DNA from: Candidatus Moraniibacteriota bacterium | GTDB taxonomy: Bacteria; Patescibacteriota; Minisyncoccia; Moranbacterales; UBA1568 | Direction of reading: 5' to 3' | Length of the DNA: 64,000 nt | Assembly: GCA_016182385.1 (NCBI GenBank) | Contig: JACPGV010000002.1 | Span: 125,190 to 189,189, forward strand | Shown here: piece by piece, positions 4,197 through 58,949 of the stretch | Numbering within the stretch: the first letter of the stretch is position 1 | Layout: every line of letters begins with the position of its first letter | Notes under the pieces: model-generated | Told to the model about the DNA's origin: nothing | Databases searched by the model: none | What the model saw: only the letters and a program-made list of their open reading frames with translations | Position numbers and translations under genes: made by a program

Positions 4197-5090
4197 ATGA
4201 TACATATTATCGGTCATAAAAAAGAACGAGAGCGATTGCGATGGGCAAGAGAGAGGAATTGTGTTGCACAGAGTTATATTTTTTTTGGACCGCAGGGTAT
4301 TGGAAAAAGTTTGTGCGCGTTAGAATTTTCTTGCGCGCTTGTCGGGGAGCCTTTTTTTACGCCGAGTGATGATCAACCGACGCCACTTGATGTTTTGGTG
4401 ATGCGGCCACGAGAGGAAGAAAAGCGTGGCGTCATCAAGGTGAAAAATATTGCCGCGGAAGATGTTCGGGAGGCGCTGCGATTTCTTTCTTGTTATCCGG
4501 CATCTGGAAAATATCGGGTTGTTATTATTGAAGAGGCACACAAGCTTTCCCTTTCGGCTCAAAATGTTCTTTTGAAAACTTTGGAAGAGCCCAATCCGTC
4601 GGCGGTCATTATTTTAGTGACGCATGAAAAAGGAACGCTGGGAGAGACGATTCTTTCGCGAACGCAGAATATGCGTTTTGATTTTGTTTCGGAAGAAGAA
4701 ATGATGGCTACTATTGATCAGAACGGACAAGACATCGCCCCATTCTTTTTTTCTCTTGGCCGGCCGGGAATGATTTTTCGAGCGCTTCATTTTCCTCAGG
4801 AATTTATTCGTGAAAAGGAGGCTTTGACGCGTCTTTTCAAACTTTCTTCACTTCCTCTCGTCGAGCGAATGAAACTTGCTGAAGAATTAGGAAAGAATAT
4901 TCCGCAAGCTGTCCGTCTTTTGGAATGGTGGTTACCTGGTCTTCATGCGCAGGCACTCCGTGATACCGACACGTGGCGGACCGCTCGTTTTTTTGTTCTT
5001 CTTGAGTTAACGGAAACAACTCTTCGTTTACTCAAAACGACTCAAGCGAATGGAAGGCTTCTTTTGGAAAAACTTTTTTTTTCGGTATAA
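4197..5090 (+). CDS. holB: DNA polymerase III delta-prime subunit (clamp-loader AAA+ protein)
   Basis: 297 aa; QSYIFFGPQGIGKSLCALEFSCALVG P-loop-like box, VVIIEEAHKLSLSAQNVLLKTLEEP sensor region, typical HolB architecture. Confidence 0.75.
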   Translation: MIHIIGHKKERERLRWARERNCVAQSYIFFGPQGIGKSLCALEFSCALVGEPFFTPSDDQPTPLDVLVMRPREEEKRGVIKVKNIAAEDVREALRFLSCYPASGKYRVVIIEEAHKLSLSAQNVLLKTLEEPNPSAVIILVTHEKGTLGETILSRTQNMRFDFVSEEEMMATIDQNGQDIAPFFFSLGRPGMIFRALHFPQEFIREKEALTRLFKLSSLPLVERMKLAEELGKNIPQAVRLLEWWLPGLHAQALRDTDTWRTARFFVLLELTETTLRLLKTTQANGRLLLEKLFFSV

Positions 5091-9754: not shown

Positions 9755-12700
9755 ATGCTTGAAAGATTCTTTAGGGGAAATGTTCGTAAAGATGCGACTG
9801 ACGATTCTCCCGGTGGCAGTGGGTCTCCGGAAAAAGAGGGCGCGATCGTTTTGTTGTCCCAGCAACCAGCTTCTTCTCAAGAGTGGCAGAATCAAAAAAA
9901 GAATTTTATTGTTCGCATTAGAGAAGTCGGCAAGAATGGTTTTCGTGTGGTTATTCATGATCGACGTCGAGGCGAAGACACGAGAGAAACGAAAGAAATG
10001 TCTCTTGATGCACTCAAAGCTCTTTTGTTGAGTGAGGGCTGTGCGCTTGTTGAGGCGCCTGTTGTGGCAAAGGTATCTCCGATAGCGCCTTTACCAACAC
10101 AAAAGGAAACCGTTGAGGAATCGCCCAAAAAAGAAAATGGAGAGAAAAACGTTTTGTTTGATCGGTTTTGTGCCATTGATGAAGAAATAAGGAAAAAAAC
10201 GGAAGAGGTAAGCGCTCTGATATCCGCGTTTCAGGGAAAAACCCTCCCGGAAAACGTAACAAACACTTATGAAAAGATATACGCGCGATACAGTGCTTTG
10301 GTTGACGAAAGCGACGCCTTCACGGAAGCAATAAACGCTCAGGATTCTCATACCGTCGATAAAGAAGCAGTAAAGCAACAAGAGAAATATTTACAAGGGT
10401 TTTCTCAGTGTGTGAATGATTTTTCTTCGTTGCGAGAGCAATTGAGCACTCAAGAGGTGCCATCAAGCGTTCCTTTGCCAAAAAAAACAACGGAGGGTGA
10501 TGACAAGATAAAAAGAGAGAAAAAAGAAGAACGTGTCTTGCGGGACTTTGAACAAAAAGTGATGTCTTTGCAAGAAGATTTTCGTCGCTCGATAGAAGAG
10601 GTCTCGGATATGGAAGGCCTTGTGGCGATTGGCACAAAAGAGTCACGGAGACGTATTTTTTTGGATAAGAAAGATCCGCAATGGAACGATGTTGCCAAAA
10701 AACTTTCACGCCCAGGAGCGGTTCAGGCAATGGCATTTCTTGAAGGAGTGAACAAGGAACTTCTTGATAGGTGGAAGAGAAAAAAAGAAGAATTGAAACA
10801 GCAATCGACACCTGTCAAAGAAACAAAAAAAAGAGGGAACCAGGAAGAGCCGGTAGTATCCGTGGTACCACAAGGAAAGGATGTTGTAAGGACAGCGAGC
10901 GTTCCTAAAAGATCAATGAGACGAAGAGGAGGAAAAGGAGGACAGGTGCCATTGGAGGACGCATCACAAGAACAAAATCCGGGAGAAAAGCAAAATGGAG
11001 CGGGAAAGAAGAAAGAGGGAGAAATCAACAAGGAATCAGCTAATGAAGAAGAAAAGACCCTGGCAGAGCTTACGAAGGCAAGGATTCTTTCTAACGAGGA
11101 TTTCATTCGTGGAGGTGCTCAGTATGTAAAAGATGATTCGGCAATCGATGGATTTCGATTGGATGTTACAGAAGAGCAAAAAAAAGCCGCGCAGGCGGAA
11201 ATGGAAAAAGAGCTTGCTGAAAAAGAGAAGCGCACAAAAGAACAAGAAGAACAGATGATGGGAAGTCGAGAGCTTTTTAAAGAGGAGCTTGTAAAAGGTG
11301 GCGCGGGTGTTTTTTATGATGAGAATGGTCAGGCGTTTATTGATCCGACAGCCGAACAAAGAGAAGCCTTGCAAAAAGAAGGCTCTCATCATCCTAGCAA
11401 GGTGGTAAAAAAAGAAGAAGAATTACTAGAGAAAAAGAATGGCGAAGGAGGTGGAGGTGATTTGTCGCCAGAAGAAAGAGAAAAAGGGGGAGAGGAGACA
11501 TTGTATGAGAAAATAGCGCGTCTTACCGAGGAGGTTGATACATTGAGAGAGAAATATATTAAAGAAGATTTTGAGCAAACGACGACGATGAAAAAACTAA
11601 AAAGTTTTTTTCGTTTGTCGGAAAATACGGCGGCACCGGAGCTTTCTTGGAGAAAATTGTATCAAGAAAAAATAAGGGAACTTCAGCGGGCAGAACTGCA
11701 AACGGTAGAAAGTGATACGGAGGATATTCATCGTTCCAAAGAAGATATTCAGGAAGGAAAGGGCCGATTGCTTGAGTATTATAGATTACAGGAGGCGATC
11801 AACGTTATTGACGCGCGTACAAAGTATCGCGCCGAATCAGAAACCTTTTTGGGAAAAGGTAAAGATGTTTTGATGGCGTTGGGAAGAAAATATAATGCTC
11901 TTTCTTTCAAGAAGAAGATGCTTCTTACCGGCGCGTTGACAGTGGGAGCGCTTGCTTCAGGCGGTATCGCTTCCGGTGCTTTGGCCGGAATGTTTATTGG
12001 AGTAAAAAGGGTATTGTCTGGCGCGGCGACAGCCGCCGGAACAGAAGCGTCTTGGGAAAAAATTTCTGAGAAGCGGAAGGCGTCGCAAGCGGAAAAGATA
12101 AAAAGGGAAATAGAAGAAAGGGTAGCGGGCGGAATGAACATGGAAGATTTGCAAAAAACTTTAGCGGAAGATGTTGGGACGGTTGATACAAAATTGCAAA
12201 AAGAGAAACGCGCGAAATCCTTTCGAAGAAGTGCTTCTCTTTTGGCTGGAGTGACGGTTGGTGGCGGAGGACTTTTGGCTGATGCTTTGATGACCGATCA
12301 TGTTTCGGAAGGGGTATCATCAAAGGAAATACTGCCGAAAGAGATGTCGCAAAACGTGATAGAAAAACCCGTTACCTCCTCCACGCCCTCTTTTTCTCTC
12401 GAACAAACGCTTGATGCGCGTGATAAGATGATAGGAGAAACAAGACGAGAGATTATTGACGAATTGGAGAGAGGAAACCAGGGTGTCGCTCAAGAAGCAC
12501 CTTCTTCGTCCTCATCAGTTTCTTCTCTTGAGCCCCTCATACGAGCTCATGAGGAGGTGACTCGTTCAGGAATGATACGGGGAGAGGAGACTCTTTTGGA
12601 AGAAAAACGAAACATCTTGCCGCAAACATCTGATGTGGCGGTAGAAACGAAAACATCTTTTGTAGAACAGACGCCTCGATTGCAAGCGCGCGCCGACAAT

Positions 12701-13036
12701 TGGTTCCAGCAGATTTTTCAGAGCGAGTACGTTTCTCCCGGGCAAGATGCTTTTTTTGATCGGCAAAAAATCGGCGGGACGAAACTTCTGGATATGATGC
12801 GTGATGCAAGATTGTACCGAGAAGGGTCTTTTTCTGGATATACCACAGGACTCAATGCTGAACAGATCAAAAGTTTCGCGGAGTTTTCCAAGAATACGGA
12901 AACGATAATTGGTCATCCTGCGATGAAAGAACTGTTACGCGCTCATCCCAATGCGACTATTGATGACTTTTTGAGGTCGGTGGCGCCACTTGTTCCTCGT
13001 GGGAAGCGGTTGGGACTTTTTACGACGGCAGTGTAA
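9755..13036 (+). CDS. giant hypothetical protein (1093 aa), E/K-rich coiled-coil with internal Gly/Ala-rich hydrophobic segments
   Basis: Long uninterrupted ORF, strongly charged low-complexity sequence (EEKK repeats), two hydrophobic G/A-rich stretches (LLTGALTVGALASGGIASGALAGMFIGV; LLAGVTVGGGGLLADAL) and a C-terminal approx 200 aa globular region. No recognisable enzymatic motif. Confidence 0.55.
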   Translation: MLERFFRGNVRKDATDDSPGGSGSPEKEGAIVLLSQQPASSQEWQNQKKNFIVRIREVGKNGFRVVIHDRRRGEDTRETKEMSLDALKALLLSEGCALVEAPVVAKVSPIAPLPTQKETVEESPKKENGEKNVLFDRFCAIDEEIRKKTEEVSALISAFQGKTLPENVTNTYEKIYARYSALVDESDAFTEAINAQDSHTVDKEAVKQQEKYLQGFSQCVNDFSSLREQLSTQEVPSSVPLPKKTTEGDDKIKREKKEERVLRDFEQKVMSLQEDFRRSIEEVSDMEGLVAIGTKESRRRIFLDKKDPQWNDVAKKLSRPGAVQAMAFLEGVNKELLDRWKRKKEELKQQSTPVKETKKRGNQEEPVVSVVPQGKDVVRTASVPKRSMRRRGGKGGQVPLEDASQEQNPGEKQNGAGKKKEGEINKESANEEEKTLAELTKARILSNEDFIRGGAQYVKDDSAIDGFRLDVTEEQKKAAQAEMEKELAEKEKRTKEQEEQMMGSRELFKEELVKGGAGVFYDENGQAFIDPTAEQREALQKEGSHHPSKVVKKEEELLEKKNGEGGGGDLSPEEREKGGEETLYEKIARLTEEVDTLREKYIKEDFEQTTTMKKLKSFFRLSENTAAPELSWRKLYQEKIRELQRAELQTVESDTEDIHRSKEDIQEGKGRLLEYYRLQEAINVIDARTKYRAESETFLGKGKDVLMALGRKYNALSFKKKMLLTGALTVGALASGGIASGALAGMFIGVKRVLSGAATAAGTEASWEKISEKRKASQAEKIKREIEERVAGGMNMEDLQKTLAEDVGTVDTKLQKEKRAKSFRRSASLLAGVTVGGGGLLADALMTDHVSEGVSSKEILPKEMSQNVIEKPVTSSTPSFSLEQTLDARDKMIGETRREIIDELERGNQGVAQEAPSSSSSVSSLEPLIRAHEEVTRSGMIRGEETLLEEKRNILPQTSDVAVETKTSFVEQTPRLQARADNWFQQIFQSEYVSPGQDAFFDRQKIGGTKLLDMMRDARLYREGSFSGYTTGLNAEQIKSFAEFSKNTETIIGHPAMKELLRAHPNATIDDFLRSVAPLVPRGKRLGLFTTAV

Positions 13037-13870: not shown

Positions 13871-16360
13871 ATGGAGGGCTTTGATTTGAATATTTTTTTG
13901 GTGCCATTGACATCGTTACTGGCTTTGATAGCTCTTATAAGCGGTGCATTTTTGGTGGCCCGCAGTTTTTTTCGTTTTCGTTATCAAATCAATCAATCCA
14001 TGAATATGGATCTTGAGGTGATACGAGTAACGCATAAAGAAGTGCCTGAGGGACAGTCCCGCGAACAAAGCGCTGAAGCATGGAAAGAGGAAATTTTTGC
14101 TATGGAACGACTACTTTCTTCTTTGGCCGTACTCAAACCAAAGGGGGGTATGTGGAAAAGTTTGTTTTTTGATACTCCGACTATTATTTTTGAAATAGCC
14201 AATCCTTCTTCGAGCGAAGAAATTTCTTTTTATTTAAGTTTGCCGAAACGTTTTCGAGAAAGCGCGGAAAAACAAATTCATAGTTTTTTTCCGCAAGCCG
14301 TTATTGAAAAGATACCGGACTACACCATTTTTTCTCCGCAGAGCTTCACAGCCTTATCGGTGCTTACGCTCAAGTACAGTCACGCGCTTCCTTTGCGAAC
14401 CTATCGTATGGTTGACGTTGATCCTTTGAATGAGATTTCTAATGCGTTGAGTAAATTGAACACCATTGAGGAGGGTGCCGCCATTCAGTTGGTGTTGACG
14501 CGCGTTGGTTCGGGCTGGCGTAAAAAGGGGAAAGCCATCGCTCAAAAAATGCAGGAGGGAAAACGCTTGAAGGACGCCCAGTCTTCTTCTGTTGCTAAAG
14601 AATTGGCAGCAGAAATGGGTAAAGGGATGGTGGGGGCCTTGGCCGGAAGAAAAAAAGAATCTCTTCCTGAAGAAAAAAAGGTAGTAGCGCTTACACCGGA
14701 GGAACAAGAATTGTTGAAGTCGATTGATGAAAAAACAAACAAAAATGCTTTTCGGGTTAATATTCGTCTCATCGCTTCGGCAACTACGGAAGAACGAGCG
14801 GAGGAGATTCTTTCTCACATGGAAAATGCTTTTGGCCAATTTGAAAATCCAGAAGTAAATATGTTTCGCGTGAAGCATCGTAGTAAAAACAAACGTTCCG
14901 TGTATGATTATATTTTTCGTAATTTTGATGATGATGTTGAGATGACACTTACGGTTGATGAAATCGCCAGTATTTTTCATTTTCCCATTTCTACGACAAA
15001 AACACCGAAAATAAAATGGCTGAAAGCCGGAGCCGCGCCACCGCCGGTCAATATTCCAAATGAAGGAGCGTTGCTTGGTTTTAACGATTATCGTGGAACG
15101 AAAACCGATATCCGTATCACGGATAATGATCGTCGTCGGCATATGTACGTGATCGGACAAACCGGTGTCGGTAAATCGAATTATTTGCAAGAAATGGCGA
15201 AAAAAGATGCCAAATCCGGCAGAGGATTTTGTTTTATCGATCCTCATGGTGATGCCATTGAAGATATTTTGACAGCCATTCCCAAAGAGCGTGCCGAAGA
15301 TGTTATTGTATTTGATCCCGCGGATATTGGTCGCCCGATCGGTATCAATATGCTGGAATATGATCCGGAACATCCCGAGCAAAAAACATTCGTTATCAAT
15401 GAAATGATTGGTATTTTCGATCAATTGTATGATTTGAAAGCGACTGGTGGTCCGATGTTTGAACAATACATGAGAAATGCCATGCTCCTTATTATGGAAG
15501 ATCCGGAAAGTGGTTCGACACTTTTGGAAATATCGAAAGTGCTCGCTGATGAAGATTTTCGTCGTTATAAGCTTGAAAAATGTTCCAATCCTATAGTGCG
15601 CGATTTTTGGATTAAGGAGGCGGAAAAGGCTGGGGGAGAGGCGGCACTTGCCAATATGGTGCCGTACATTACATCCAAGTTAACAGCTTTTATCAGTAAT
15701 GATATGATGCGGCCGATCATTGCCCAACAAAAAAGCACGATTGATTTTCGAGAGATTATGGATGGTGGAAAGATTTTGCTCATCAATCTTTCCAAGGGAA
15801 AAATCGGAGAAATTAATGCCCGATTGCTTGGTATGGTTGTGGTAGGGAAGATTTTAATGGCGGCGCTTTCCCGTGTCAATACACCGGAAAATGAGCGACG
15901 CGATTTTTATCTTTATCTGGACGAGTTCCAAAACGTTACAACCACGTCTATTGCTCAAATTCTTTCAGAAGCCCGCAAATATCGTCTCGTTCTTATTTTG
16001 GCACACCAGTTTATCGGACAATTGAAAGAAGAAATATCAAAAGCGGTTTTTGGCAATGTTGGCTCTCTGGTGTCATTCCGCGTTGGACCGGAAGACGCGG
16101 AGTTTCTTGAAAAACAATTCGCCCCTGTTTTTACCGCGAGCGATATCATGAATGTCGATAATTACAATTGTTTTGTGCGACTTCTTATGAATAATGAGTT
16201 GACCAAGCCATTCAATATGAAGACATATCCGCCAACCCTTGGAAATCAAGAAATAGCGAACGCGCTGAAAGAACTTTCTCGTTTGCGTTATGGTCGTGAT
16301 GCCGCGATTGTAAACCGGGAAATCATGAGTCGTATCAAGTTGACCGAACGATTGCAATGA
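13871..16360 (+). CDS. membrane-anchored VirB4/VirD4(TraG)-family type IV secretion/conjugation ATPase
   Basis: 829 aa; N-terminal TM helix; Walker A VIGQTGVGKSNYL followed by FIDPHGD (DPKGE-like box of TraG/VirD4/VirB4), Walker B FYLYLDEFQNV, and ILAHQFIGQL (conserved Q..QL box of coupling proteins). Confidence 0.7.
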   Translation: MEGFDLNIFLVPLTSLLALIALISGAFLVARSFFRFRYQINQSMNMDLEVIRVTHKEVPEGQSREQSAEAWKEEIFAMERLLSSLAVLKPKGGMWKSLFFDTPTIIFEIANPSSSEEISFYLSLPKRFRESAEKQIHSFFPQAVIEKIPDYTIFSPQSFTALSVLTLKYSHALPLRTYRMVDVDPLNEISNALSKLNTIEEGAAIQLVLTRVGSGWRKKGKAIAQKMQEGKRLKDAQSSSVAKELAAEMGKGMVGALAGRKKESLPEEKKVVALTPEEQELLKSIDEKTNKNAFRVNIRLIASATTEERAEEILSHMENAFGQFENPEVNMFRVKHRSKNKRSVYDYIFRNFDDDVEMTLTVDEIASIFHFPISTTKTPKIKWLKAGAAPPPVNIPNEGALLGFNDYRGTKTDIRITDNDRRRHMYVIGQTGVGKSNYLQEMAKKDAKSGRGFCFIDPHGDAIEDILTAIPKERAEDVIVFDPADIGRPIGINMLEYDPEHPEQKTFVINEMIGIFDQLYDLKATGGPMFEQYMRNAMLLIMEDPESGSTLLEISKVLADEDFRRYKLEKCSNPIVRDFWIKEAEKAGGEAALANMVPYITSKLTAFISNDMMRPIIAQQKSTIDFREIMDGGKILLINLSKGKIGEINARLLGMVVVGKILMAALSRVNTPENERRDFYLYLDEFQNVTTTSIAQILSEARKYRLVLILAHQFIGQLKEEISKAVFGNVGSLVSFRVGPEDAEFLEKQFAPVFTASDIMNVDNYNCFVRLLMNNELTKPFNMKTYPPTLGNQEIANALKELSRLRYGRDAAIVNREIMSRIKLTERLQ

Positions 16361-16464: not shown

Positions 16465-18927
16465 TTATTCCTGAATCTCAATTTTAAAGGAGAGAAGGGT
16501 ATGATTGGTCATAATGAAGAGTTCGTTGTTTTTTTCGTTGACGACAAAAGAGAGGGCATCAGGAATTTTTTCTAATGAATACCGACGGAAGAGGGTTCCA
16601 TCTTGGCGGAAAATATAAAACATTTTCTGTGAAGCATCGAGAGCGTAGATATGCGTGAGATCTGGCGCGGTAAAGAGGGTCGTGAGAGTAAAAGGGGTGT
16701 CCGGTAAAGAAAACCGTGTGACGAGACGTCCCCGGAAAAAAGAAGAAAGGGTATTATCGGGACAAGAAAGAAAGAGTGTTTCGTGAATGGCGAATGTCGC
16801 GTTGTCTTCACAGGAAGTCTTTTCTTTGAGCCAAAAAGAGGCAGTGCCGAAACCGCCCGTAGCTCGTGGAAAGCGATAGATCTGATCGTGCGCGCTATCG
16901 AGGGCGTAAAGATACGTGAGGTATGTTCCGATGCTTTGAATATCAGCCCCTTCAGGGATATCCAGGTTGTTTTTGGTAAAGGCGTGAGTGATGGAGCTGA
17001 AAGAATAAAGTTCTTTTTTTGTGGTATAGAGGAAAATGAGACTCAGATCGTCCATAGCTGTCGCGAGACGGATAGTTCCGTTTTCTCTTGGAAAGGAATA
17101 TGTTTTTTGCTCACGGAGACTGAAAACAGTATTTTCGCCGATACCGTAAACTTCGTTATCGAGGAGGACTATTTTAATGAAAGGCGCTTCTTGAGTGGCG
17201 AGAGTGGAACCGTTTTCCAGGGAAGGAAATTTTTTATTATTTAGAGAAGAAAGAGATTCTATAGTTTCTTCATTTTCTAGAATTGTGTTCGGTGTTTCTT
17301 TTGTTGTTGCGGGACGTGTTGTCAGGAAAAAAAGAGTAAGAGAGAGAAGGGAAAGGAAGATCACTACAGAAAAAAATATTTTTTTCTGTAGTGGTGAGAG
17401 GGCGATATAACGAAGAGAAAGCGTTCGAAAGAGAACGCGTAAATGAAAAAGGAGCTTGTTTGAGACGTTTCCCAATTTGCGCCGAGCGATAGCGAGAGAA
17501 AGGAGAAGCTGGTTGGATATGCCGGGAGTTATTTTTTTCTGGTTATTTTTTTGATAGAAGGAGGCTATTTTTTCTTTGAGAAAATCAGGCGTTTCTGGAA
17601 TTGTTGCGGGATCAATCATTGTTACGGAATCAGTCGGAGAGAAAGAAGGTTCTTCGGATATTTTTTCGATTATTGAAGAATCTTTCTTGAGATGACGGAG
17701 AAAAGAGGTTGTTTTGACTTTCTCTTGTGCTACAAGAATGTTTTTTTGCCATTTTTTCTTCAAAAAACGTCCTGTGTTGCGTGAAACGAGAAAGAGTTTT
17801 TCCGTTCCTTGATAAAGAGAGAGTGAACCCTGTTTGCCTACTTTGCGAAAAAATCTTTTTTGTCCGGCAAAAAAATCATTAAACGCGTGAAGAATATTTT
17901 GAAAAAAGAGTGACAACCGCTCGATTGACGGATGTGATGCCGAAGAATCAGGAGTGTTCCCGTGCACATAAATATGTCCGGTTTTTGAATCAATATAATC
18001 CTTTGGTAAGGGGTCTTTTTCTTCTGGAGCGTTTTCCGCTGTTGCGATAGATGTAGGGGATTTTTCAATAAAAGTAGCGTTACTGAAGGCATTCATTACT
18101 GAAGCGTCTTGACGCGTTTCGGAAGAGTGTTTTTTGGGGGATTCTTGAATAATTTTTTCCTCGCAATCGATGATAAAAATACCGCTTCTATCAAGCTCGT
18201 TGGTAATGGCTGTACGTAAAAATTGAGCAAATTGCTCTTTATTCATGCGAGCGACTTGTTTTTCTAGAAGATCGAGAGGAAGTAGGGAGAGGGGTTCGGG
18301 AGAAGTAAAAATAATCTTATCTTCCGGCAAAAGTCTCCCACTCGAAACCTCGACGAAAGTTTTTATGGGGTGTGAAGAGGATTCTTCTGACGCAAGGCCA
18401 ACGCTTATTTCCGAGAGGGTGCCATTACGTGATAATAAAATAGTCCCTTGGCCGGTAACGGAAAAATGAATATTGTTTTTTTCGATTATTCCGAGAGTCC
18501 CGTGAAGTTTTCCAAGCCAAGAAATGTTTCCGTGTTTGACAAGCTCGGCCAGGGCGAGATTTATTTTATGGAGGGCGGCTTCGAAACTTTCGATGGCGCC
18601 GCGACGGGGGTTATTGAAATATTCTTTGCGAGCGACTGAGGAAAGGAAATTGACGATATACGCGGCATCTTCACTTTTTTCGGTTATTTCAAAAATTCCT
18701 ATGAGCGTACCTAAAGACGCGGCGACGACGTTTTCTCCGCTATAATGGAACGTTTTGATAAAAGGTTCATAGGAGCGATTGCCGACGACGAGAATTTCGG
18801 TAATCTCTTTTTCGATCTCTGTGAGAACCTTTGGTTTTTCTTGGCGTTTTTTCTCCGACATAACACGGGCAAAACAAGTCAAAACAATAGAAAGAGATTT
18901 TTCTTCAAACCTCTCACAGTATACCAT
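16465..18927 (-). CDS. hypothetical bitopic membrane protein (820 aa) with C-terminal repeat (beta-propeller-like) domain
   Basis: Long ORF, central TM helix (IFFSVVIFLSLLSLTLFFLTT), C-terminal repeats of the type IYALDSA/IYRF, FYIFRQDG; convergent with the ATPase gene. Confidence 0.5.
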   Translation of the reverse strand: MVYCERFEEKSLSIVLTCFARVMSEKKRQEKPKVLTEIEKEITEILVVGNRSYEPFIKTFHYSGENVVAASLGTLIGIFEITEKSEDAAYIVNFLSSVARKEYFNNPRRGAIESFEAALHKINLALAELVKHGNISWLGKLHGTLGIIEKNNIHFSVTGQGTILLSRNGTLSEISVGLASEESSSHPIKTFVEVSSGRLLPEDKIIFTSPEPLSLLPLDLLEKQVARMNKEQFAQFLRTAITNELDRSGIFIIDCEEKIIQESPKKHSSETRQDASVMNAFSNATFIEKSPTSIATAENAPEEKDPLPKDYIDSKTGHIYVHGNTPDSSASHPSIERLSLFFQNILHAFNDFFAGQKRFFRKVGKQGSLSLYQGTEKLFLVSRNTGRFLKKKWQKNILVAQEKVKTTSFLRHLKKDSSIIEKISEEPSFSPTDSVTMIDPATIPETPDFLKEKIASFYQKNNQKKITPGISNQLLLSLAIARRKLGNVSNKLLFHLRVLFRTLSLRYIALSPLQKKIFFSVVIFLSLLSLTLFFLTTRPATTKETPNTILENEETIESLSSLNNKKFPSLENGSTLATQEAPFIKIVLLDNEVYGIGENTVFSLREQKTYSFPRENGTIRLATAMDDLSLIFLYTTKKELYSFSSITHAFTKNNLDIPEGADIQSIGTYLTYLYALDSAHDQIYRFPRATGGFGTASFWLKEKTSCEDNATFAIHETLFLSCPDNTLSSFFRGRLVTRFSLPDTPFTLTTLFTAPDLTHIYALDASQKMFYIFRQDGTLFRRYSLEKIPDALSFVVNEKNNELFIMTNHTLLSFKIEIQE

Positions 18928-23385: not shown

Positions 23386-24001
23386 GTGTTCACCTCTCTT
23401 TCTAGCTTAACGAATAAGATTGTCAAAGTGCCGCTTTCGTTGAAGCCGTCGACTTGCCAAAACTATCTTTTATGGCATTGGCAAGCCATCTATCGACCCC
23501 CTGTCTTTGTATACTACGTCTTTGAAAAATGACTGTCAACTGGACAAATGAACGTTTTTTTGTCCTGGTGAAAGAAGGAAAGATCGGATAGATGCACCAT
23601 GAAGAGGGTGTGGAAATTTTTTTAATGAAATATATTTTTTATGGAAAGAGGAATGCGCGCGTGTTTCGAAGTTTGCTTCTGATGATTCGCGTAATGGAAG
23701 AGATTTGTTTTTGAGTGATAAGAGAAAAATATTTTTTATGGAATGTTTTGAAATATTTTGTGAGAAAGAGTAAAAAGAAAAAATATTTTTTCTTGTATTG
23801 GTGTTATGGAGTATTGACAAGAATTTTTTTTCTTTGCTTTTTTTGAAAAAAGAGTATAATAAAAACATACGGAAACTTTTTCTGTATCACGCACAAAAAA
23901 AATTCTGTGTCGTGTAAAATAAAAAATAAACCTTTCTCTTCTTGTGTCGCATAAACAGATGCGCGCAAAATGAAGAGATGGTGTAGGAGGAGGTGAGTAT
24001 T

Positions 24002-42066: not shown

Positions 42067-42310
42067 AGACAAGCAATCTAAATGTAAATAGATTGCTTTT
42101 GTTTCTTTTTGTTTTTACAAAAAGGGTGAGCACTTTAACAATTGAGCCAAAACAATAAAATTAATCGCAATTTTTTGCGGTTAGTCCTCACTTGGAAATC
42201 GCTTCGGCGATGGAAGAGTGATTACGGAAACTCTATTCTACAATGAATCTGAAATCTTTTTGAGTGAGATATATCAAAGAGAGTTTGAGCAATCAAATGA
42301 TTCGCATATC

Positions 42311-43809
<1,499 letters not shown>

Positions 43810-44005
43810 AGGGAGTAAATGGTGTACATGTTACTTGTATCTTCGGATAGAAGTAACCAAGAGTTGAGAGTCAATCTCAAATTCTTAACCAATTATGGTC
43901 GCTCATTACGATTTAGTTGTCAGCGTTTCGACAAAGACAACCGTAGTAATGAAACATAATTTAGAGTTACGTAATAGAAGGACTAGCCGCAAAAGTTTGT
44001 GAATA

Positions 44006-44036
44006 AAAAACACCTTTTATTTGAGGTGTTTTTTGT
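44006..44036 (+). terminator. rho-independent terminator downstream of 16S (AAAAAACACCTTTTATTTGAGGTGTTTTTTGTTTT)
   Basis: Hairpin CACCT..AGGTG with flanking A- and T-tracts about 200 nt after the 16S 3' end. Confidence 0.65.
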
Positions 44037-44278
44037 TTTAGTTTGCTGGAAAATGAGTTAATTCGTTTTGGATAAAAAGAGTGCTTGCTTATGGTTTCGA
44101 AAGAACGACTAGAAAAATTTAAACAACTTTTTTAATATGATCTAATATAGTCAAAATATAAGGAAAAATGATATAAAAATTATGGCTTATTATAAACATA
44201 TATATAAAAAATTGAATACATTATTGATTTATTATATCAAAAATGATATAATTAAGGTATAAAAATGATATAAAACTT

Positions 44279-45346
44279 ATGCCAAAAATTACCAGCAATA
44301 AACTAAACGAACGGCAAAACGTTATATTAGTTTTTATCGAAGACAGTAAATCTGTTTCAATTGGACAGATTTTTGAGCATATCCAAAATGGTTTTGAGAA
44401 GATTACGAGGATAACTGTTTCAAGAGATTTGGAAAAATTGCTAAACATCAATTTAATTGAAAAACAAGGAAAATCAAAAAGAACTATCGTTTATCGGATT
44501 TCGTCCCAGTATTCGATGCTGAAAAAAATTGATGTTGAAAAATATTTTGCTCAAGATGTTGACCAACGAAAAATCAGAGAAACTTTTAACTTTGATATTT
44601 TTAGTCAATTGAAAGATATTTTCACTGAGACTGAAAAAAACAGACTCTCAGAGCTGAATGATATTTACCGAGATAAGATAAAGGACATTGCACCAGATGC
44701 TTTTAGAAAGGAAATTGAGAGACTAAATATCGATTTTAGCTGGAAGTCTTCCAAGATTGAGGGTAATACTTACAGTTTGCTAGAAACCGAACAGCTTATC
44801 AAAAACCAGCAAGAAGCCTCAGGTCATACCAAGGAGGAGGCCGTGATGATTTTGAATCACAAGAAGACTCTGGACTATATTGGAAATAATAAAAAGGATT
44901 TCCAATTGGTATCTGTTGCTAAGATTGAAAATGTCCATTCTTTTCTGGTAGATGGTTTGAACGTGACCAAAAATTTGAGAAAAAGTTTGGTAGGAATAAC
45001 TGGCACGAATTACAAGCCATTGGATAATGAATTCCAAATCAGAGAGGCTTTAGAAAAGACTTGTCAAACAGTCAATGAAACAAAAAACGTTTTTGAAAAA
45101 GCGGTGATTTTGATGTTGCTTATCGCATATATCCAGCCGTTTGTTGATGGCAATAAAAGAACGAGTCGTTTAAGTGGCAATGCCGTTTTGCAATCGTTTG
45201 ATTCCTGTCCGCTTTCGTATCGCAGTATGGACGAAATTGAATACAAAAAGGCGATTTTACTATTCTATGAGCAGAATAATATCTCATACTTCAAGGAATT
45301 GTTCTTGAAGCAGTTTGAGTTTGCTGTGGAAAATTACTTCGGATGA
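44279..45346 (+). CDS. HTH-Fic/DOC family protein with degenerate Fic motif (QPFVDGNKRTSR instead of HPFx[DE]GNGRxxR)
   Basis: 355 aa; N-terminal wHTH (ITRITVSRDLEKLLNINLIEK), central Fic core ...AVILMLLIAYIQPFVDGNKRTSRLSGNAVL; coding GC is much lower (about 33-35%) than surrounding genes. Confidence 0.75.
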   Translation: MPKITSNKLNERQNVILVFIEDSKSVSIGQIFEHIQNGFEKITRITVSRDLEKLLNINLIEKQGKSKRTIVYRISSQYSMLKKIDVEKYFAQDVDQRKIRETFNFDIFSQLKDIFTETEKNRLSELNDIYRDKIKDIAPDAFRKEIERLNIDFSWKSSKIEGNTYSLLETEQLIKNQQEASGHTKEEAVMILNHKKTLDYIGNNKKDFQLVSVAKIENVHSFLVDGLNVTKNLRKSLVGITGTNYKPLDNEFQIREALEKTCQTVNETKNVFEKAVILMLLIAYIQPFVDGNKRTSRLSGNAVLQSFDSCPLSYRSMDEIEYKKAILLFYEQNNISYFKELFLKQFEFAVENYFG

Positions 45347-45437
45347 AAACAAAAAAATTCCTAAAGGTTTTTTTATCTATTCGAACATAATCAATGTTAT
45401 ATTGTTGGTGAATAATACCTCAATATGAAACAGTGAT

Positions 45438-46382
45438 ATGAATCAGGAAAAATTGGGGAGAAAACTGGTCAAAGGGGAATTATTTGATTTGATGTTATAT
45501 AGAGCGCTTCAGAAACAAACGCGAGGTGATCTGGCGAGTCTTTTTGATGAACTCATTCCCGTGGAGGAGCGACATTATGCTTTTTGGGAAAATTTTTTTC
45601 AGATACATGATATTCGTTTGAGTTTGTTGGATCGATTTCGAATCTGGTTTTTCAAGTTTTTTTGTCGGATATTTGGGACAGCAGGAGTCAATCTTCTTCT
45701 TGAAGCGATAGAAATCAATGGTATAAAAAAATATCTCGCGGTTTGGGAGCTGTATAAAAATGAACCAGTAGGGGTTGCTGTTCGTAACATTCTTGACGAT
45801 GAGTTTCGTCATGAAGACGCGATTATTTCTGATAAGATTGATCGAAAAATTCACCCGGAAAGAATTAGAAATGTTTTTTTGGGATTAAATGATGGTTTGG
45901 TAGAAATTCTCGGCGCGGTAAGTGGATTTTTTATAGCGTTTCAAACACTTCCTCTGGTATTGGTGGCGTCATGTACCGTGGCCATCGCAGGTGCGTTTTC
46001 AATGGCGGCCGGCGCTTTTGTGGCTGTTGGAGCAGAACGTGAAGCAGAAGGAGTAGAAAGAAGTAAAAAACGATACTTAGGAGAAGGAGAGGAAAATACG
46101 CGGTCGGAGCGTCCTTTAGGGGCAGCAATCTTGGTTGGCGCCTCATATCTTTTTGGGGCGGCAATACCGATTGTACCAGTGTTTTTTGGATCGGAAAGTG
46201 TGGTTGTATCAATGGTTGTTTCTGGTATTATCGTTTCCATTGTATCGATGATCCTTTCTTTTCTTTCCGGCATGGATATAAGGCGTCGTGTAGCTACCAA
46301 TCTCGTTATCATTGCTCTTGCCGTTGGCGTGACGGCATTTATTGGATATGGAGCGCGATTATTGTTTGGTGTAGAAGTGTAA
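45438..46382 (+). CDS. VIT1/CCC1 family Fe/Mn transporter with N-terminal ferritin-like (rubrerythrin-like) domain
   Basis: 314 aa; N-terminal ferritin-like helices (EERHYAFWENFF..., DDEFRHEDAII), then GLNDGLVEILGAVSGF and 4-5 TM helices typical of VIT1. Confidence 0.7.
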   Translation: MNQEKLGRKLVKGELFDLMLYRALQKQTRGDLASLFDELIPVEERHYAFWENFFQIHDIRLSLLDRFRIWFFKFFCRIFGTAGVNLLLEAIEINGIKKYLAVWELYKNEPVGVAVRNILDDEFRHEDAIISDKIDRKIHPERIRNVFLGLNDGLVEILGAVSGFFIAFQTLPLVLVASCTVAIAGAFSMAAGAFVAVGAEREAEGVERSKKRYLGEGEENTRSERPLGAAILVGASYLFGAAIPIVPVFFGSESVVVSMVVSGIIVSIVSMILSFLSGMDIRRRVATNLVIIALAVGVTAFIGYGARLLFGVEV

Positions 46383-55748: not shown

Positions 55749-58700
55749 TTAGTTTTGTAATGATGCCAGATGATTTTTGATATCAAGAAGCTGTTTTTGC
55801 GATTCTTTGAGTTTGCCGTGTTTTGTTTCGATGATTTCTTTTTTAGCGCGTTCGATAAAGTTTTTGTTCGAGAGTTTGGCTTCGAGTGTCGCGATATATT
55901 TTTCTTTTTCGTCTTTTTCTTTTGTGAAGCGCGCCCGTTCTTTGGCGATATCGACGACGCCATCGAGATGAAGGAAAGCAGAGAGGAGTCCGTATTGGAC
56001 GCGAAGAGTGTTTTTCGGCGCGACAGCGCTTTTGAGTGTTTGAAGTTTATCGATGCGCGCGAGACGTTTGAAAATTTCTTCGTTGCCACGAAGGGTTTGT
56101 TCGGACTCGCCGAAAGCGCTCACAGTCATCTTTTGTGCCGGATCGATATGGTAAGCCGCGCGGACATTGCGGATAGTCGAGATGAGTCCTTTCACGAGCT
56201 CGAAGCGATTTTCCGTGGCGATTTCAAGTTTTGTCGTATCGAATTCTGGCCACTTGGCGATCATCAGAAATTCGTTCGTATCGAAATGGAACGTCTGGTG
56301 TATGGCTTCGGTGACGAACGGCATAAAGGGATGCCAGAGTTTGAGGATTTTGTCGAAAGCGTAGCGGAGCAGGGCATCGTTTTTCTCGACCTTGTGCACT
56401 TCGACATACCAGTCGGCGAAATCACCCCAAGTGAACTCGCGGAGCTCTTCGGCGGCGAGCGAAAGCTCGTAGCGTTCGAGGTGGCGTGTGATGTCGCGGA
56501 CGATCGCGTGGAGTTTTTTTATCAGGTACTGGTCTGCATCCGTCTTTGGCTCTGGCGGCGTATTCGTTTTTTCTGTCATGGTGCCGACATAACGCGCGAG
56601 ATTCCAAAGCTTGTTGGTGAAATTACGCATCATAACGATCTTTTCATCTGAGAGCCTGAGATCGTTGCCGGGTGTTGAACCGGAAATAAGTGCCATACGA
56701 AGCGCGTCAGCACCGTATTTTTCTGAAACCGTGAGCGGGTCGATTACGTTGCCGAGACTTTTACTCATCTTGCGACCCTGTTCGTCGCGGACGAGGCCGT
56801 GAAGATAGATGGTGTCGAAAGGGTGTGTGTCGAGGAGATATTCCGTCATAAGAATCATCCGTGCCACCCAGAAAAAGAGGATGTCATAGCCGGTTTCGAG
56901 GAGACTGGTCGGATGATAATTTTTGAAATCAACCGCGTTTTCATCTGGCCAGCCGAGCGTTGAGAACGTCCACAATCCCGACGAGAACCACGTATCGAGC
57001 GTATCAGGATCTTGTTCAAAGAAATGATGGCCACAATATTCGCATGGCTTGAGAATATCAATAGAAAGCGGAGTGGCATTCGGGAACCTTTTGATGTTCA
57101 TGATGGATTCTGGTGTAACACCTTGTATTTTTCTCCAGAGTGCGCGCAGTACGGCTCCATGGCTCGTTATGAGCACGTTTTTATGGGAATGTTTTTCAAG
57201 ATGTTCCGAGACTGCTTTCCAGATTCTGTTTTCTGCCTCCTCATAACTTTCATTATTAGCGGATTTTCCATTGTATTTTTGGAGATCTGGGAATCGTTTT
57301 TTCGTTTCTGAATATGATAGGCCTTCGGCTTTGCCCATATTTCTTTCTTGGAGACGGTCATCAATGATGATTTCATCCACTCCTATTTTTTTACCGATGA
57401 TTTTGGCTGTTTCGTGTGCTCGAGAAAGGTGTGAGCTGAAGATAACTCCGATATTTTCAGCGGCGAGTTTTTCTGCTGTAAGACGTGCCTGTTCGCGTCC
57501 GGTTTCGTTGAGCGGAATATCAGTGGTTCCGGCGTTGATTTCTTTCTTGTTCCAATCTGTTTCTCCATGGCGCACAAAAAACCATCGGGACTTTACGGTT
57601 GCGTTGATGCGTTCTTTTTTGCAGGAGAGACAGTACCACACGGGAATGCGATGGCCGAACCAAATCTGGCGTGAGATACACCAGTCGCGGAGATTGTCGA
57701 TCCAGTGGAAGTATGTTTTGGAGAATCGTTCGGGGAGAAGAGTAATTTTTCCTGGCCCGACGGCTTCGCGCATCAGTTGTTTGAGTGTCGTCTTTTTTCC
57801 ACTATGGTCGAATTCTTTGTTCACCGCTACGAACCATTGGCGCATCGGGATGATTTCGAGTACGTCTTCGTAGCGATCGCTTGTCCCGACGTTTTGTGTG
57901 ATGTCTTCTTCTTTCTCAATGAGATCGTTCTCACGGAGCCAGAGGACGAATTTTTCACGCGCTTCGAGTGTTGTGAGGTGGGCATAGTCTTGGCCCGCTT
58001 CGGCCGTCATGGTTCCGTCAGTGTCGATGACTTGGATGAGATCGATTTCTGGATGACGCTCACGCATTTCGAAATCGGCATGACTGTGGGCGGGTGTGAC
58101 GCCGACCGCGCCGGTACCAAACGCGGGGTCGACGGATTCGTCCGCGATGATTTTGATTGCAAGCGGTTTGGCGGAGCCTACGTCGGCAGTGAATGTTTGC
58201 CCGATGTATTTTTTGTAACGTTCGTCATCCGGATGGACAGCGATAGCCGTATCGCCGAGCTTGGTTTCGGGACGGGTGGTCGCGATGGCGATAGGAAAAT
58301 TTTTCGAGTAGCGGAAGGTATAGAGTTTTGCTTGCCGTTCAATAGTGACGACCTCATCGTCGGAACAGGTGGACTGCCCCTTGATCGTCCAGTTGACGAC
58401 ACGATAACCGCGGTAGATGAGTCCGTCATCATACATTTTTTTGAAGGCGGTACGGACAGAAAGACTGCGTTTTTCATCGAGTGTGTAGGCTTCGCGCGAC
58501 CAGTCGAGTGACGCGCCCATTTTTTTGGTCTGATGGACGATCGTGTCGTGACTTTGCTGAGCAAATGTTTCAATACGTTTCAAAAATTCTTCCCGACCGA
58601 GATCGAAGCGGGTTTTTTGTTCTTCTTTCCAAAGAATGTTTTCCACTTTGCTTTGTGTGGCGACAGCGGCGTGGTCAGTGCCGGGGATCCAAAGTGTCCG

Positions 58701-58949
58701 ATCTCCCTTCATCCGATGGTAGCGGACGATCGTATCCTCAATGGCGAGCATCGCGGCATGGCCGGCATGAAGCGTGCCGGTGACATTCGGCGGGGGAAGG
58801 ACGATCGAAAAAGTCGGTTTCGTTTCGTCAGTGATATTTTTTTTGATGCAGATATCGGGATTGAAGAGACCGCTTTCTTCCCATTTGGAATAAAGCTCGT
58901 TTTCCCACTCCTTGGCATCGTATGTTTTCGGAATATTGTTTTCATTCAT
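55749..58949 (-). CDS. valS: valyl-tRNA synthetase with an inserted histidine-phosphatase (PGAM-like) domain
   Basis: 1066 aa; class I motifs PPPNVTGTLHAGHA (HIGH) and KMSKSLGN; WCISRQIWFGHRIPVWYC and DPDTLDTWFSSGLW anchors; C-terminal coiled coil. Between the CxxC pairs (LSCKKE ... CEYCGHH) lies a domain of about 190 aa with FVRHGETDWN, SSHLSRAHETAKII, ITSHGAVLRAL. Confidence 0.9.
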   Translation of the reverse strand: MNENNIPKTYDAKEWENELYSKWEESGLFNPDICIKKNITDETKPTFSIVLPPPNVTGTLHAGHAAMLAIEDTIVRYHRMKGDRTLWIPGTDHAAVATQSKVENILWKEEQKTRFDLGREEFLKRIETFAQQSHDTIVHQTKKMGASLDWSREAYTLDEKRSLSVRTAFKKMYDDGLIYRGYRVVNWTIKGQSTCSDDEVVTIERQAKLYTFRYSKNFPIAIATTRPETKLGDTAIAVHPDDERYKKYIGQTFTADVGSAKPLAIKIIADESVDPAFGTGAVGVTPAHSHADFEMRERHPEIDLIQVIDTDGTMTAEAGQDYAHLTTLEAREKFVLWLRENDLIEKEEDITQNVGTSDRYEDVLEIIPMRQWFVAVNKEFDHSGKKTTLKQLMREAVGPGKITLLPERFSKTYFHWIDNLRDWCISRQIWFGHRIPVWYCLSCKKERINATVKSRWFFVRHGETDWNKKEINAGTTDIPLNETGREQARLTAEKLAAENIGVIFSSHLSRAHETAKIIGKKIGVDEIIIDDRLQERNMGKAEGLSYSETKKRFPDLQKYNGKSANNESYEEAENRIWKAVSEHLEKHSHKNVLITSHGAVLRALWRKIQGVTPESIMNIKRFPNATPLSIDILKPCEYCGHHFFEQDPDTLDTWFSSGLWTFSTLGWPDENAVDFKNYHPTSLLETGYDILFFWVARMILMTEYLLDTHPFDTIYLHGLVRDEQGRKMSKSLGNVIDPLTVSEKYGADALRMALISGSTPGNDLRLSDEKIVMMRNFTNKLWNLARYVGTMTEKTNTPPEPKTDADQYLIKKLHAIVRDITRHLERYELSLAAEELREFTWGDFADWYVEVHKVEKNDALLRYAFDKILKLWHPFMPFVTEAIHQTFHFDTNEFLMIAKWPEFDTTKLEIATENRFELVKGLISTIRNVRAAYHIDPAQKMTVSAFGESEQTLRGNEEIFKRLARIDKLQTLKSAVAPKNTLRVQYGLLSAFLHLDGVVDIAKERARFTKEKDEKEKYIATLEAKLSNKNFIERAKKEIIETKHGKLKESQKQLLDIKNHLASLQN

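Follow-up and report, generated by a model that had tools for sequence, protein, structure and literature searches.

We analyzed a 64,000-nucleotide stretch of contig JACPGV010000002.1 from a Candidatus Moraniibacteriota bacterium (hereafter the window), which carries, downstream of its 16S ribosomal RNA (rRNA) gene, a fic gene encoding a winged helix-turn-helix (wHTH) domain fused to a Fic domain with Gln and Lys at two key positions of the active-site loop. Positions 44164–45346 probably form a solitary, self-repressing cassette, located in a variable interval between the 16S unit and a VIT1 gene, and a solitary autorepressed module is the most likely description of the locus. The original prediction had seen here a horizontally acquired, low-GC islet carrying a Fic protein with a degenerate catalytic motif. 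Our results instead describe the "islet" as a compact, well-maintained regulatory cassette behind the 16S terminator, not a decaying foreign gene. Conservation shows the repeats upstream of the gene to be a predicted promoter-operator that travels with it, and the Gln/Lys loop is, by the same kind of evidence, a conserved family signature and not a sign of degeneration.

The coding sequence (44279–45346, plus strand) specifies a 355-residue product that is a 100% match to an NCBI "Fic family protein" of Candidatus Moranbacteria. Its membership of the Fic/Fido family is supported by a Pfam Fic (PF02661) match of 52 bits, against a cut-off of 24, over residues 212–304. An AlphaFold2 (AF2) model, made from a 58-sequence alignment (predicted local distance difference test score 95.6, predicted template modeling score 0.91), places a wHTH at residues 11–75, followed by a helical linker and an all-helical Fic core at residues 139–352. 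The wHTH (44309–44503, plus strand) has the order helix-helix-helix-β-β, with helices at residues 11–23, 28–36, and 44–56 and strands at 60–63 and 71–74; residues ∼44–56 (ITRITVSRDLEKL) form the putative recognition helix. The N-terminus of the family profile matches BlaI/MecI repressors with E-values of 5e-4 to 9e-4, and the same profile matches FICD at 1e-21. The best Foldseek matches in the PDB were FICD/HYPE, Fic-1, BT_2513, SoFic, and CdFic (probability 1.0, TM-scores of 0.5–0.64), with an E-value of 6e-9 and TM-scores of 0.58–0.63 for FICD. The model thus shows a winged HTH at the N-terminus joined to an intact class-II Fic fold, which bears out the two-domain organization originally proposed.

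The active-site loop QPFVDGNKRTSR (Q286–R297; 45134–45169, plus strand) aligns with HPFIDGNGRTSR of FICD. In the HMMER alignment with human FICD, YIQPFVDGNKRTSRL falls on YIHPFIDGNGRTSRL and SSKIEGNT on TVAIEGNT, such that Q286 occupies the position of the FICD catalytic His and K293 that of the second Gly. The loop thus departs from the canonical HxFx(D/E)GNGRxxR motif by exactly the two substitutions first noted. The motif SSKIEGN (S157–N163; 44747–44767, plus strand), aligned with TVAIEGN of FICD, resembles the inhibitory helix α-inh: it has the class-II form (S/T)xxxE(G/N) N-terminal to the core (S157-S-K-I-E161-G162), and both E161 and G162 are invariant in the family. We looked for another conserved His that might complete a canonical motif and found none. 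The invariant H220 aligns with a second FICD His, separate from the catalytic one, and is therefore no stand-in for the catalytic residue. Since His is replaced by Gln and Gly by Lys, with no alternative His, canonical His-dependent AMPylation is unlikely, as the original prediction had expected.

Both substitutions are family traits. Gln and Lys occur together in 229 of the 231 motif-bearing homologs that we retrieved, a set that includes 50%-identity cluster representatives and extends to ∼30% identity at the lowest, and the family loop reads Q-x-F-x-D-G-N-K-R-T-x-R. Seventeen columns are invariant in 58 diverse aligned sequences, among them W155, E161, G162, H220, R234, and P247, as well as Q286, F288, D290, G291, N292, K293, R294, R297, and N301; a flap-like segment, VGITGTxYxPL, is also conserved. 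Compared with L001, the closest of the homologous loci fetched as DNA (87% amino acid identity), the gene has a nonsynonymous divergence (dN) of 0.078 and a synonymous divergence (dS) of ∼3.3, which is saturated, giving a dN/dS of ∼0.02; dS was not computable for pairs more distant than this one. These values point strongly to purifying selection on the gene. From the saturated dS and the low dN/dS it follows that any transfer would be ancient and that the gene is not decaying; "degenerate" is not an apt word for a motif retained in this way. In a collection of 5.8 billion proteins, the best non-self match to the Fic protein is 89% identical and the 120th is 75% identical, compared with a best match of 83% and a lower mark of ∼72% for ribosomal protein L13 of the same window, and a best match of 65% for the adjacent VIT1 protein.

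A pattern scan with one genome per species found relatives encoded in at least 456 genomes. They occur in Moranbacteria, Saccharibacteria, Peribacteria, Paceibacterota, many Bacteroidota, Cloacimonadota, and Chlorobiota, and further in Spirochaetia, Gastranaerophilales, Termititenax, and proteobacterial metagenome-assembled genomes. Homologs do occur in phage and plasmid settings, for which a search had been suggested: full-length members lie on alpha- and beta-proteobacterial plasmids, one of which, from Cereibacter, encodes a 458-residue protein (QPFEDVNKRVSR) amid ParDE, HipA, and nucleotidyltransferase genes, and members lacking the HTH are encoded by a phage contig from the human gut (LQPFIDGNKRTSR) and by a Helicobacter prophage (LQFFEDCNKRTAR). 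Matches annotated "HypE-like" in Streptococcus satellite phages were rejected as family members, as they carry the canonical HPFSDGNGR motif. A "Fic family protein" on a Bacteroides finegoldii plasmid (NZ_OY725910; locus L085, 3200–4273) is an N-terminally truncated Gln/Lys member (QPFADGNKRTAR) with stop codons at the expected position of the HTH, and its DNA-binding domain has probably been lost.

Upstream of the gene, AAAAATGATATAA occurs in three exact copies, at 44164, 44239, and 44261, and two variants with two mismatches each lie at 44050 and 44134. The original prediction had counted four copies, one of them a variant, and taken them for operator or promoter elements. Three are exact, in addition to an inverted half-site and the two variants; the regulatory assignment itself agrees with the position of the repeats on the −35, −10, and +1 region and with their conservation in relatives. 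Taken alone, the 12-mer count for the entire window (3) carries no significance, as 11 of 100 shuffled sequences contain at least as many; the significance of the repeat comes from its clustering and its conservation in other genomes. A promoter scan identified a near-consensus promoter of the extended −10 type, TTGATT-17-TATAAT plus an upstream TG (10/12 matches). Its −35 box TTGATT lies at 44224–44229 (plus strand), and the TTGA is invariant in nine aligned Moranbacteria-type upstream regions. The spacer holds the inverted half-site TTATATCA (44232–44239, plus strand), kept in relatives, which forms the left half of a palindrome, TTATATCA-AAAA-TGATATAA. Proximal copy 1 (44239–44252, plus strand) overlaps the extended −10 element TGATATAAT (44244–44252), and proximal copy 2 (44261–44273, plus strand) begins 22 nt further on and spans roughly +3 to +15 of the inferred transcript, 6 nt ahead of the ATG. 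Within the 64 kb, both the palindrome TRTAWCA-N4-TGWTAYA (0.09 matches expected) and the pair of repeats spaced by 22 nt are unique.

In the nine aligned upstream regions, most invariant columns fall within a 55-nt segment that begins with the −35 box and includes the second copy, a conservation that persists although synonymous sites of the gene are saturated, and the Moranbacteria-type half-site has the consensus TGWTAYA. Homologs of 71–87% identity keep the same promoter-operator layout despite wholly different neighborhoods. The distal copy (44164–44176, plus strand; half-site TGATATA at 44169–44175), an exact copy ∼75 nt upstream of the proximal one, is found at the equivalent place in L001, L003, L005, and L008, and blastn homology with L001 starts at 44167, within this copy, and ends at the stop codon (45347). 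The DNA that moves together with the gene is thus bounded upstream by the distal copy.

The arrangement extends beyond this clade. Direct repeats upstream of fic at 84 loci, measured by the longest in each, are longer than those in 271 control regions upstream of neighboring genes (Mann-Whitney p = 2e-11); in fic loci where this longest repeat has 7 nt or more, a spacing of 22 nt is by far the commonest (38 loci). Bacteroidota-type operators consist of two AGCTCA and two TGAGCT sites, each pair 22 nt apart, the last site abutting a TAnnTTTG element. Recognition helices of the form T-x-x-R-D-L go with TGWTAYR sites in 30/30 loci and those of the form T-x-K-R with GAGCT sites in 48/48 loci, a match in 78/78 overall, while three or more such sites occur in 0.7% and 1.8% of the control upstream regions. 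The locus thus has the organization of an autoregulated wHTH repressor, with a predicted operator over its own promoter that is conserved along with the gene.

Two further features of the upstream DNA were noted. A small open reading frame (ORF) at 44183–44263 (ATGGCTTAT), suggested by a 21-nt repeat containing an ATG, was discarded: its frame is not conserved, with a stop after three codons in L003 and another length and sequence in L001, and the segment is a DNA element. A second palindrome, ATGGCTTA-N-TAAGCCAT, closely follows the distal copy in several Moranbacteria loci (L001, 5904–5921; L005, ∼4899–4916; the upstream region of L019); it is degenerate in the window (44183–44196) and resembles the ATGGCTCA/TGAGCC sites of Bacteroidota-type operators.

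We propose that the wHTH would bind TGWTAYA half-sites, probably in oligomeric form along a single face of the double helix, with three or four half-sites, two helical turns apart, covering its own −35, −10, and +1 region. Copy 2, two helical turns past copy 1, would lie across the inferred transcription start, and occupancy of the operator would block RNA polymerase and thereby keep the level of the protein low. The role of the Fic domain can be sketched only tentatively. Its loop is, judged by alignment, a hybrid that combines the Lys of Doc with the final Arg and in-cis Glu (SxxxEG) of class-II Fic proteins and a Gln in place of the catalytic His. The retained phosphate-binding residues, the Doc-type Lys, the final Arg, the Glu-Gly pair, and the flap argue for an occupied, gated pocket that meets a partner, whereas the loss of the His speaks against both classical AMPylation and catalysis of the Doc type. 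The pocket might still bind a nucleotide or phosphate ligand, with the flap docking a protein target under the gating of Glu161, and the domain might act by a His-independent reaction such as Doc-like phosphotransfer or Glu-dependent hydrolysis; alternatively, it might be a ligand-sensing pseudoenzyme that modulates DNA binding.

That the Gln/Lys loop is a working active site with a chemistry new to the Fic fold is possible, though we lean against it. Such a chemistry may be Glu161-dependent hydrolysis, making the protein an "eraser" of a phospho- or nucleotidyl modification, or a His-free, Doc-like phosphotransfer, and the fused wHTH may then couple Fic activity to DNA binding. If true, this would give the "clade D2" proteins discussed below their first assigned function and would imply a physiologically important role in the reduced genomes of the candidate phyla radiation (CPR) rather than that of a selfish toxin.

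Several points weigh against a self-repressing cassette with a functional Fic pocket. A repressor acting solely on itself needs an output, and none was identified; no other operator was found in the 64 kb searched. The association between recognition helix and operator spans essentially two clades and may reflect one evolutionary event. Within the Moranbacteria type, the half-site variants TGATATA, TGTTACA, and TGATACA are only partly concerted between copies, and strict compensatory covariation of half-sites, which we considered for this clade, is only partly true, with variation limited to two positions of TGWTAYA. The operator role itself is inferred from conservation, position, and symmetry. 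As for the pocket, loss of the general-base His, for which Gln is a poor substitute as a base, argues against transferase activity; in a comparison with P1 Doc and the Doc motif HxFx(D/N)(A/G)NKR, the Lys is present and the His absent.

The Fic/Doc superfamily serves as a model of functional diversification within a single fold, in which minor alterations of the active-site loop lead to AMPylation, phosphorylation, phosphocholination, and de-modification. Against this background, a His-less clade that is spread widely among Patescibacteria, Bacteroidota, plasmids, and prophages and is very strongly constrained by purifying selection represents a gap in the Fic/Doc picture. The protein shares its fold with the class-II AMP-transferases (FICD/HYPE, Caenorhabditis elegans Fic-1, Shewanella SoFic, Clostridium CdFic, and Bacteroides BT_2513), along with an in-cis inhibitory SxxxEG helix N-terminal to the core, a flap-like segment, and the loop scaffold xPFxDGNxRTxR including the final Arg. 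It differs from them in the Gln that replaces the catalytic His, in the Lys that replaces the second Gly of the anion hole, and in a sequence identity of only 15–20%. The wHTH of SoFic is C-terminal, whereas that of the present protein is N-terminal, and the PADLOC SoFic model gives a partial match (E = 1.7e-14) at positions 53–206 of 361, covering only the shared Fic core. The likeness to BlaI/MecI consists of weak profile similarity in the wHTH and of a dyad operator over the regulator's own promoter; a BlaI-type C-terminal dimerization or cleavage domain is lacking, and the effector is a Fic fold.

With the Doc kinase the protein shares the Lys of G-N-K-R, which, according to PMC5651007, citing Castro-Roa 2013, confers kinase rather than nucleoside monophosphate-transfer activity. 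The Doc motif, Hxxx[D/E]GNKRxx[!R], is without the final Arg (PMC4454073). Doc, unlike the present protein, retains the His and is a single domain of ∼125 residues that is neutralized in trans by Phd. The NCBIfam model DOC_P1 scored 21.2 bits, below its cut-off of 38.65, and a Phd-type antitoxin gene is not conserved among 134 flanking genes; in the window, the upstream neighbor is the 16S gene. The closest precedent is "clade D2" of Khater & Mohanty 2015 (PMC4454073), comprising 45 sequences with the consensus Qx[F/Y]x[D/E][G/V]NKR, which QPFVDGNKR of the present protein matches exactly. That purely in silico study placed the clade with Doc, described it as "usually single-domain", and argued from its conservation that it is probably not dead. 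The family described here is, in contrast, fused to a wHTH and structurally similar to class-II Fic proteins, and it now comprises thousands of proteins; as regards the single-domain description, the present protein has two domains, although phages carry relatives that lack the HTH. The Gln/Lys variant had thus already been noticed computationally in 2015, and the member found here, fused to an autoregulatory wHTH, is not an oddity confined to the window. Our literature search returned no experimental work on Gln-variant Fic proteins, the 2015 description being the only account, and no solved structure belonging to the Gln/Lys family was found. The conserved promoter-operator offers a directly testable handle on this family.

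The genomic surroundings of fic differ in every relative examined. Among the 134 flanking genes no partner (antitoxin or target) is conserved, the commonest Pfam family occurring only three times, and there is no enrichment of defense, toxin-antitoxin, or mobile genes; the abortive-infection role raised by the original prediction found no support in this survey. In the window we detected neither an integrase nor a flanking repeat of note that would delimit a mobile element; short low-complexity direct and inverted matches on the flanks were judged to be due to chance. None of the loci fetched through the fic gene contains a 16S gene. The only locus with a 16S match, L089, was fetched through a VIT1 homolog: its 16S gene is 94% identical, it carries VIT1 (62%) after 5.2 kb and six unrelated genes, it lacks fic, and its homology with the window ends at 44005, just inside the terminator. 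L088 shares VIT1, M23, SIMPL, and DoxX genes (57–69% identity) and has genes for a LexA-like protein and a Y-family polymerase upstream of VIT1. Because L089 and L088 carry other genes there, the DNA that separates the 16S trailer from VIT1 is variable, and the presence of the fic cassette at this site is lineage-specific. Insertion and rearrangement are not told apart by this comparison, in which the VIT1 homologs reach no more than 65% identity and mostly sit in rearranged contexts, and only L089 keeps the linkage of 16S and VIT1.

Several neighboring genes are described here as separate observations. In L001 (489–5610), a Moranbacteria relative, two tyrosine integrases and an 861-residue KAP-family NTPase are encoded immediately upstream of the fic cassette, and a NUDIX gene starts 2 nt past the fic stop codon; NUDIX genes also occur within a few kilobases in L002 and L003. 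The product of the gene directly downstream of fic in the window (45438–46382, plus strand) joins an N-terminal domain of the rubrerythrin/ferritin-like type (Pfam Rubrerythrin, 6.5e-5) to a VIT1/CCC1 iron transporter (Pfam VIT1, 3.4e-24); its best non-self homolog is only 65% identical.

The drop in GC content that had first drawn attention to the region is real: 43810–45360 has 32.0% GC compared with 43.3% for the window, which places it within the lowest 0.35% of 1551-bp sliding windows. The intergenic part (43808–44278) has 27.2% GC, the lowest among the 21 intergenic regions of at least 100 nt, and the fic ORF has 34.4%, the second-lowest among 59 ORFs (mean 42.9%, standard deviation [SD] 3.4). 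Third-position GC (GC3) of the fic ORF, however, is 37.6% compared with 41.3% (SD 5.6) over the ORFs of the window, within 0.7 SD of the mean and no outlier. The deficit lies in codon positions 1 and 2, and the protein is enriched in N, K, I, and Q and depleted in A, G, and P. Its synonymous codon-usage distance ranks third among 39 ORFs, in the upper tail, a distance equaled by the housekeeping valyl-tRNA synthetase (ValRS). The low GC of fic therefore results mostly from amino acid composition, and in host genomes of 33–41% GC the homologous genes always have 34–37%. Given the normal GC3, composition alone is no proof of recent foreign origin; the suspicion of atypical sequence was justified for overall GC, but not for GC3. 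Likewise, the idea of a horizontally acquired islet holds insofar as a lineage-specific segment lies between 16S and VIT1, whereas GC content fails as evidence of recent transfer in view of the normal GC3 and the saturated dS.

A recently acquired foreign islet with a decaying or non-catalytic Fic, as first proposed, is quite improbable in our estimation. It would accommodate the lowest-GC 1.5 kb of the window, the rank of the gene in codon usage, its shifting context, the other genes between 16S and VIT1 in the relative with the 94%-identical 16S gene, the members on plasmids and in prophages, and the homolog adjoining two integrases and a KAP NTPase. GC3, amino acid composition, and the equal codon-usage distance of ValRS weaken the compositional argument, however, and a saturated dS with a dN/dS of ∼0.02 against an 87% identical homolog, an invariant motif, and a window without flanking repeats or integrase all run counter to recent arrival and decay. 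We also consider it unlikely that the gene is a single-gene toxin or anti-phage module, that is, an autoinhibited class-II Fic toxin that is autorepressed and released by a trigger, in the manner of SoFic defense or FicTA/Doc. The catalytic His needed for Fic/Doc toxicity is absent, and a His mutant of a non-canonical Fic has been reported to lose toxicity. The PADLOC matches to SoFic and to the candidate system PDC-S04 (7e-13) and the match to PHROG 11900 (1e-28) speak for such a module, as do the HTH-less homologs in the gut phage contig and the Helicobacter prophage, the Cereibacter plasmid homolog with its ParDE, HipA, and nucleotidyltransferase neighbors, the patchy phyletic spread, and a tight autorepression typical of toxins; the SoFic match, however, is limited to the shared core. 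A possible toxin or defense role fits poorly with neighbors that show no defense, toxin-antitoxin, or mobile enrichment and with a conservation above that of ribosomal protein L13, unlike that of fast-evolving defense genes.

A Fic-fold one-component transcription factor, whose pocket would only sense a nucleotide or metabolite while the protein controls itself and a distant regulon, is conceivable but rather doubtful. Loss of the general base with retention of the phosphate-binding residues would suit a sensor, and so would the fused wHTH with its conserved operator, the high conservation, and the retention of the gene in small CPR genomes; PMC10628234 reports a Coxiella Fic enzyme that couples DNA binding to (de)AMPylation. 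Yet there is no second operator in the 64 kb, the flap-like VGITGTxYxPL shows, like the inhibitory Glu, the conservation seen in enzymes, and the existence of HTH-less phage versions suggests that the domain functions without DNA binding.

The unit that precedes the fic cassette is that of the 16S gene. The 16S rRNA gene (42311–43807, plus strand) is complete (Rfam SSU_rRNA_bacteria, 1405 bits, model positions 1–1533) and is flanked by a 28-nt inverted repeat with 82% complementarity, the predicted pre-16S processing stem, whose 5′ arm at 42161–42188 (plus strand) belongs to the rRNA unit and not to the fic cassette. The 3′ trailer (43808–44006, plus strand), which includes the 3′ arm of the stem (43979–44006), is kept in L089. 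An intrinsic terminator, consisting of a hairpin with a 14-bp stem (93% complementary) and a T-run, ends the 16S transcription unit at 44002–44049 (plus strand); its RNA folds at −19.1 kcal/mol (z = −5.35), a stability matched by none of 200 shuffled sequences. Because the processing stem and terminator lie there, the first 200–240 nt of the low-GC stretch as originally delimited are part of the rRNA transcription unit. Rfam searches at gathering thresholds detected nothing in the window besides the 16S gene and tRNAs, so no known RNA family occupies the intergenic region; neither a 23S nor a 5S gene is present in the 42 kb upstream or the 20 kb downstream of the 16S gene. A lone 16S gene with its own processing stem and terminator, with no 23S or 5S gene within that range, indicates that the rRNA genes are unlinked. 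Downstream of fic, an A/U-rich hairpin at 45351–45374 was not significant as a terminator (z = −1.1).

Further observations concern more distant parts of the window. The ValRS ORF (55749–58949, minus strand; 1065 residues) contains a full His_Phos_1 domain (Pfam E = 1.4e-47, residues 456–624) within the class-I catalytic domain, an unusual fusion or insertion of a histidine phosphatase. The lowest GC of any ORF in the window (29.4%, GC3 25.2%) belongs to a 110-residue ORF at 23536–23868 (minus strand) that has no Pfam match. Two very large ORFs, at 9755–13036 (plus strand; 1093 residues) and 16465–18927 (minus strand; 819 residues), are also without a Pfam match, and the 829-residue protein encoded between them (13871–16360) shows weak similarity to TraG/VirD4 coupling proteins and HerA-like ATPases.

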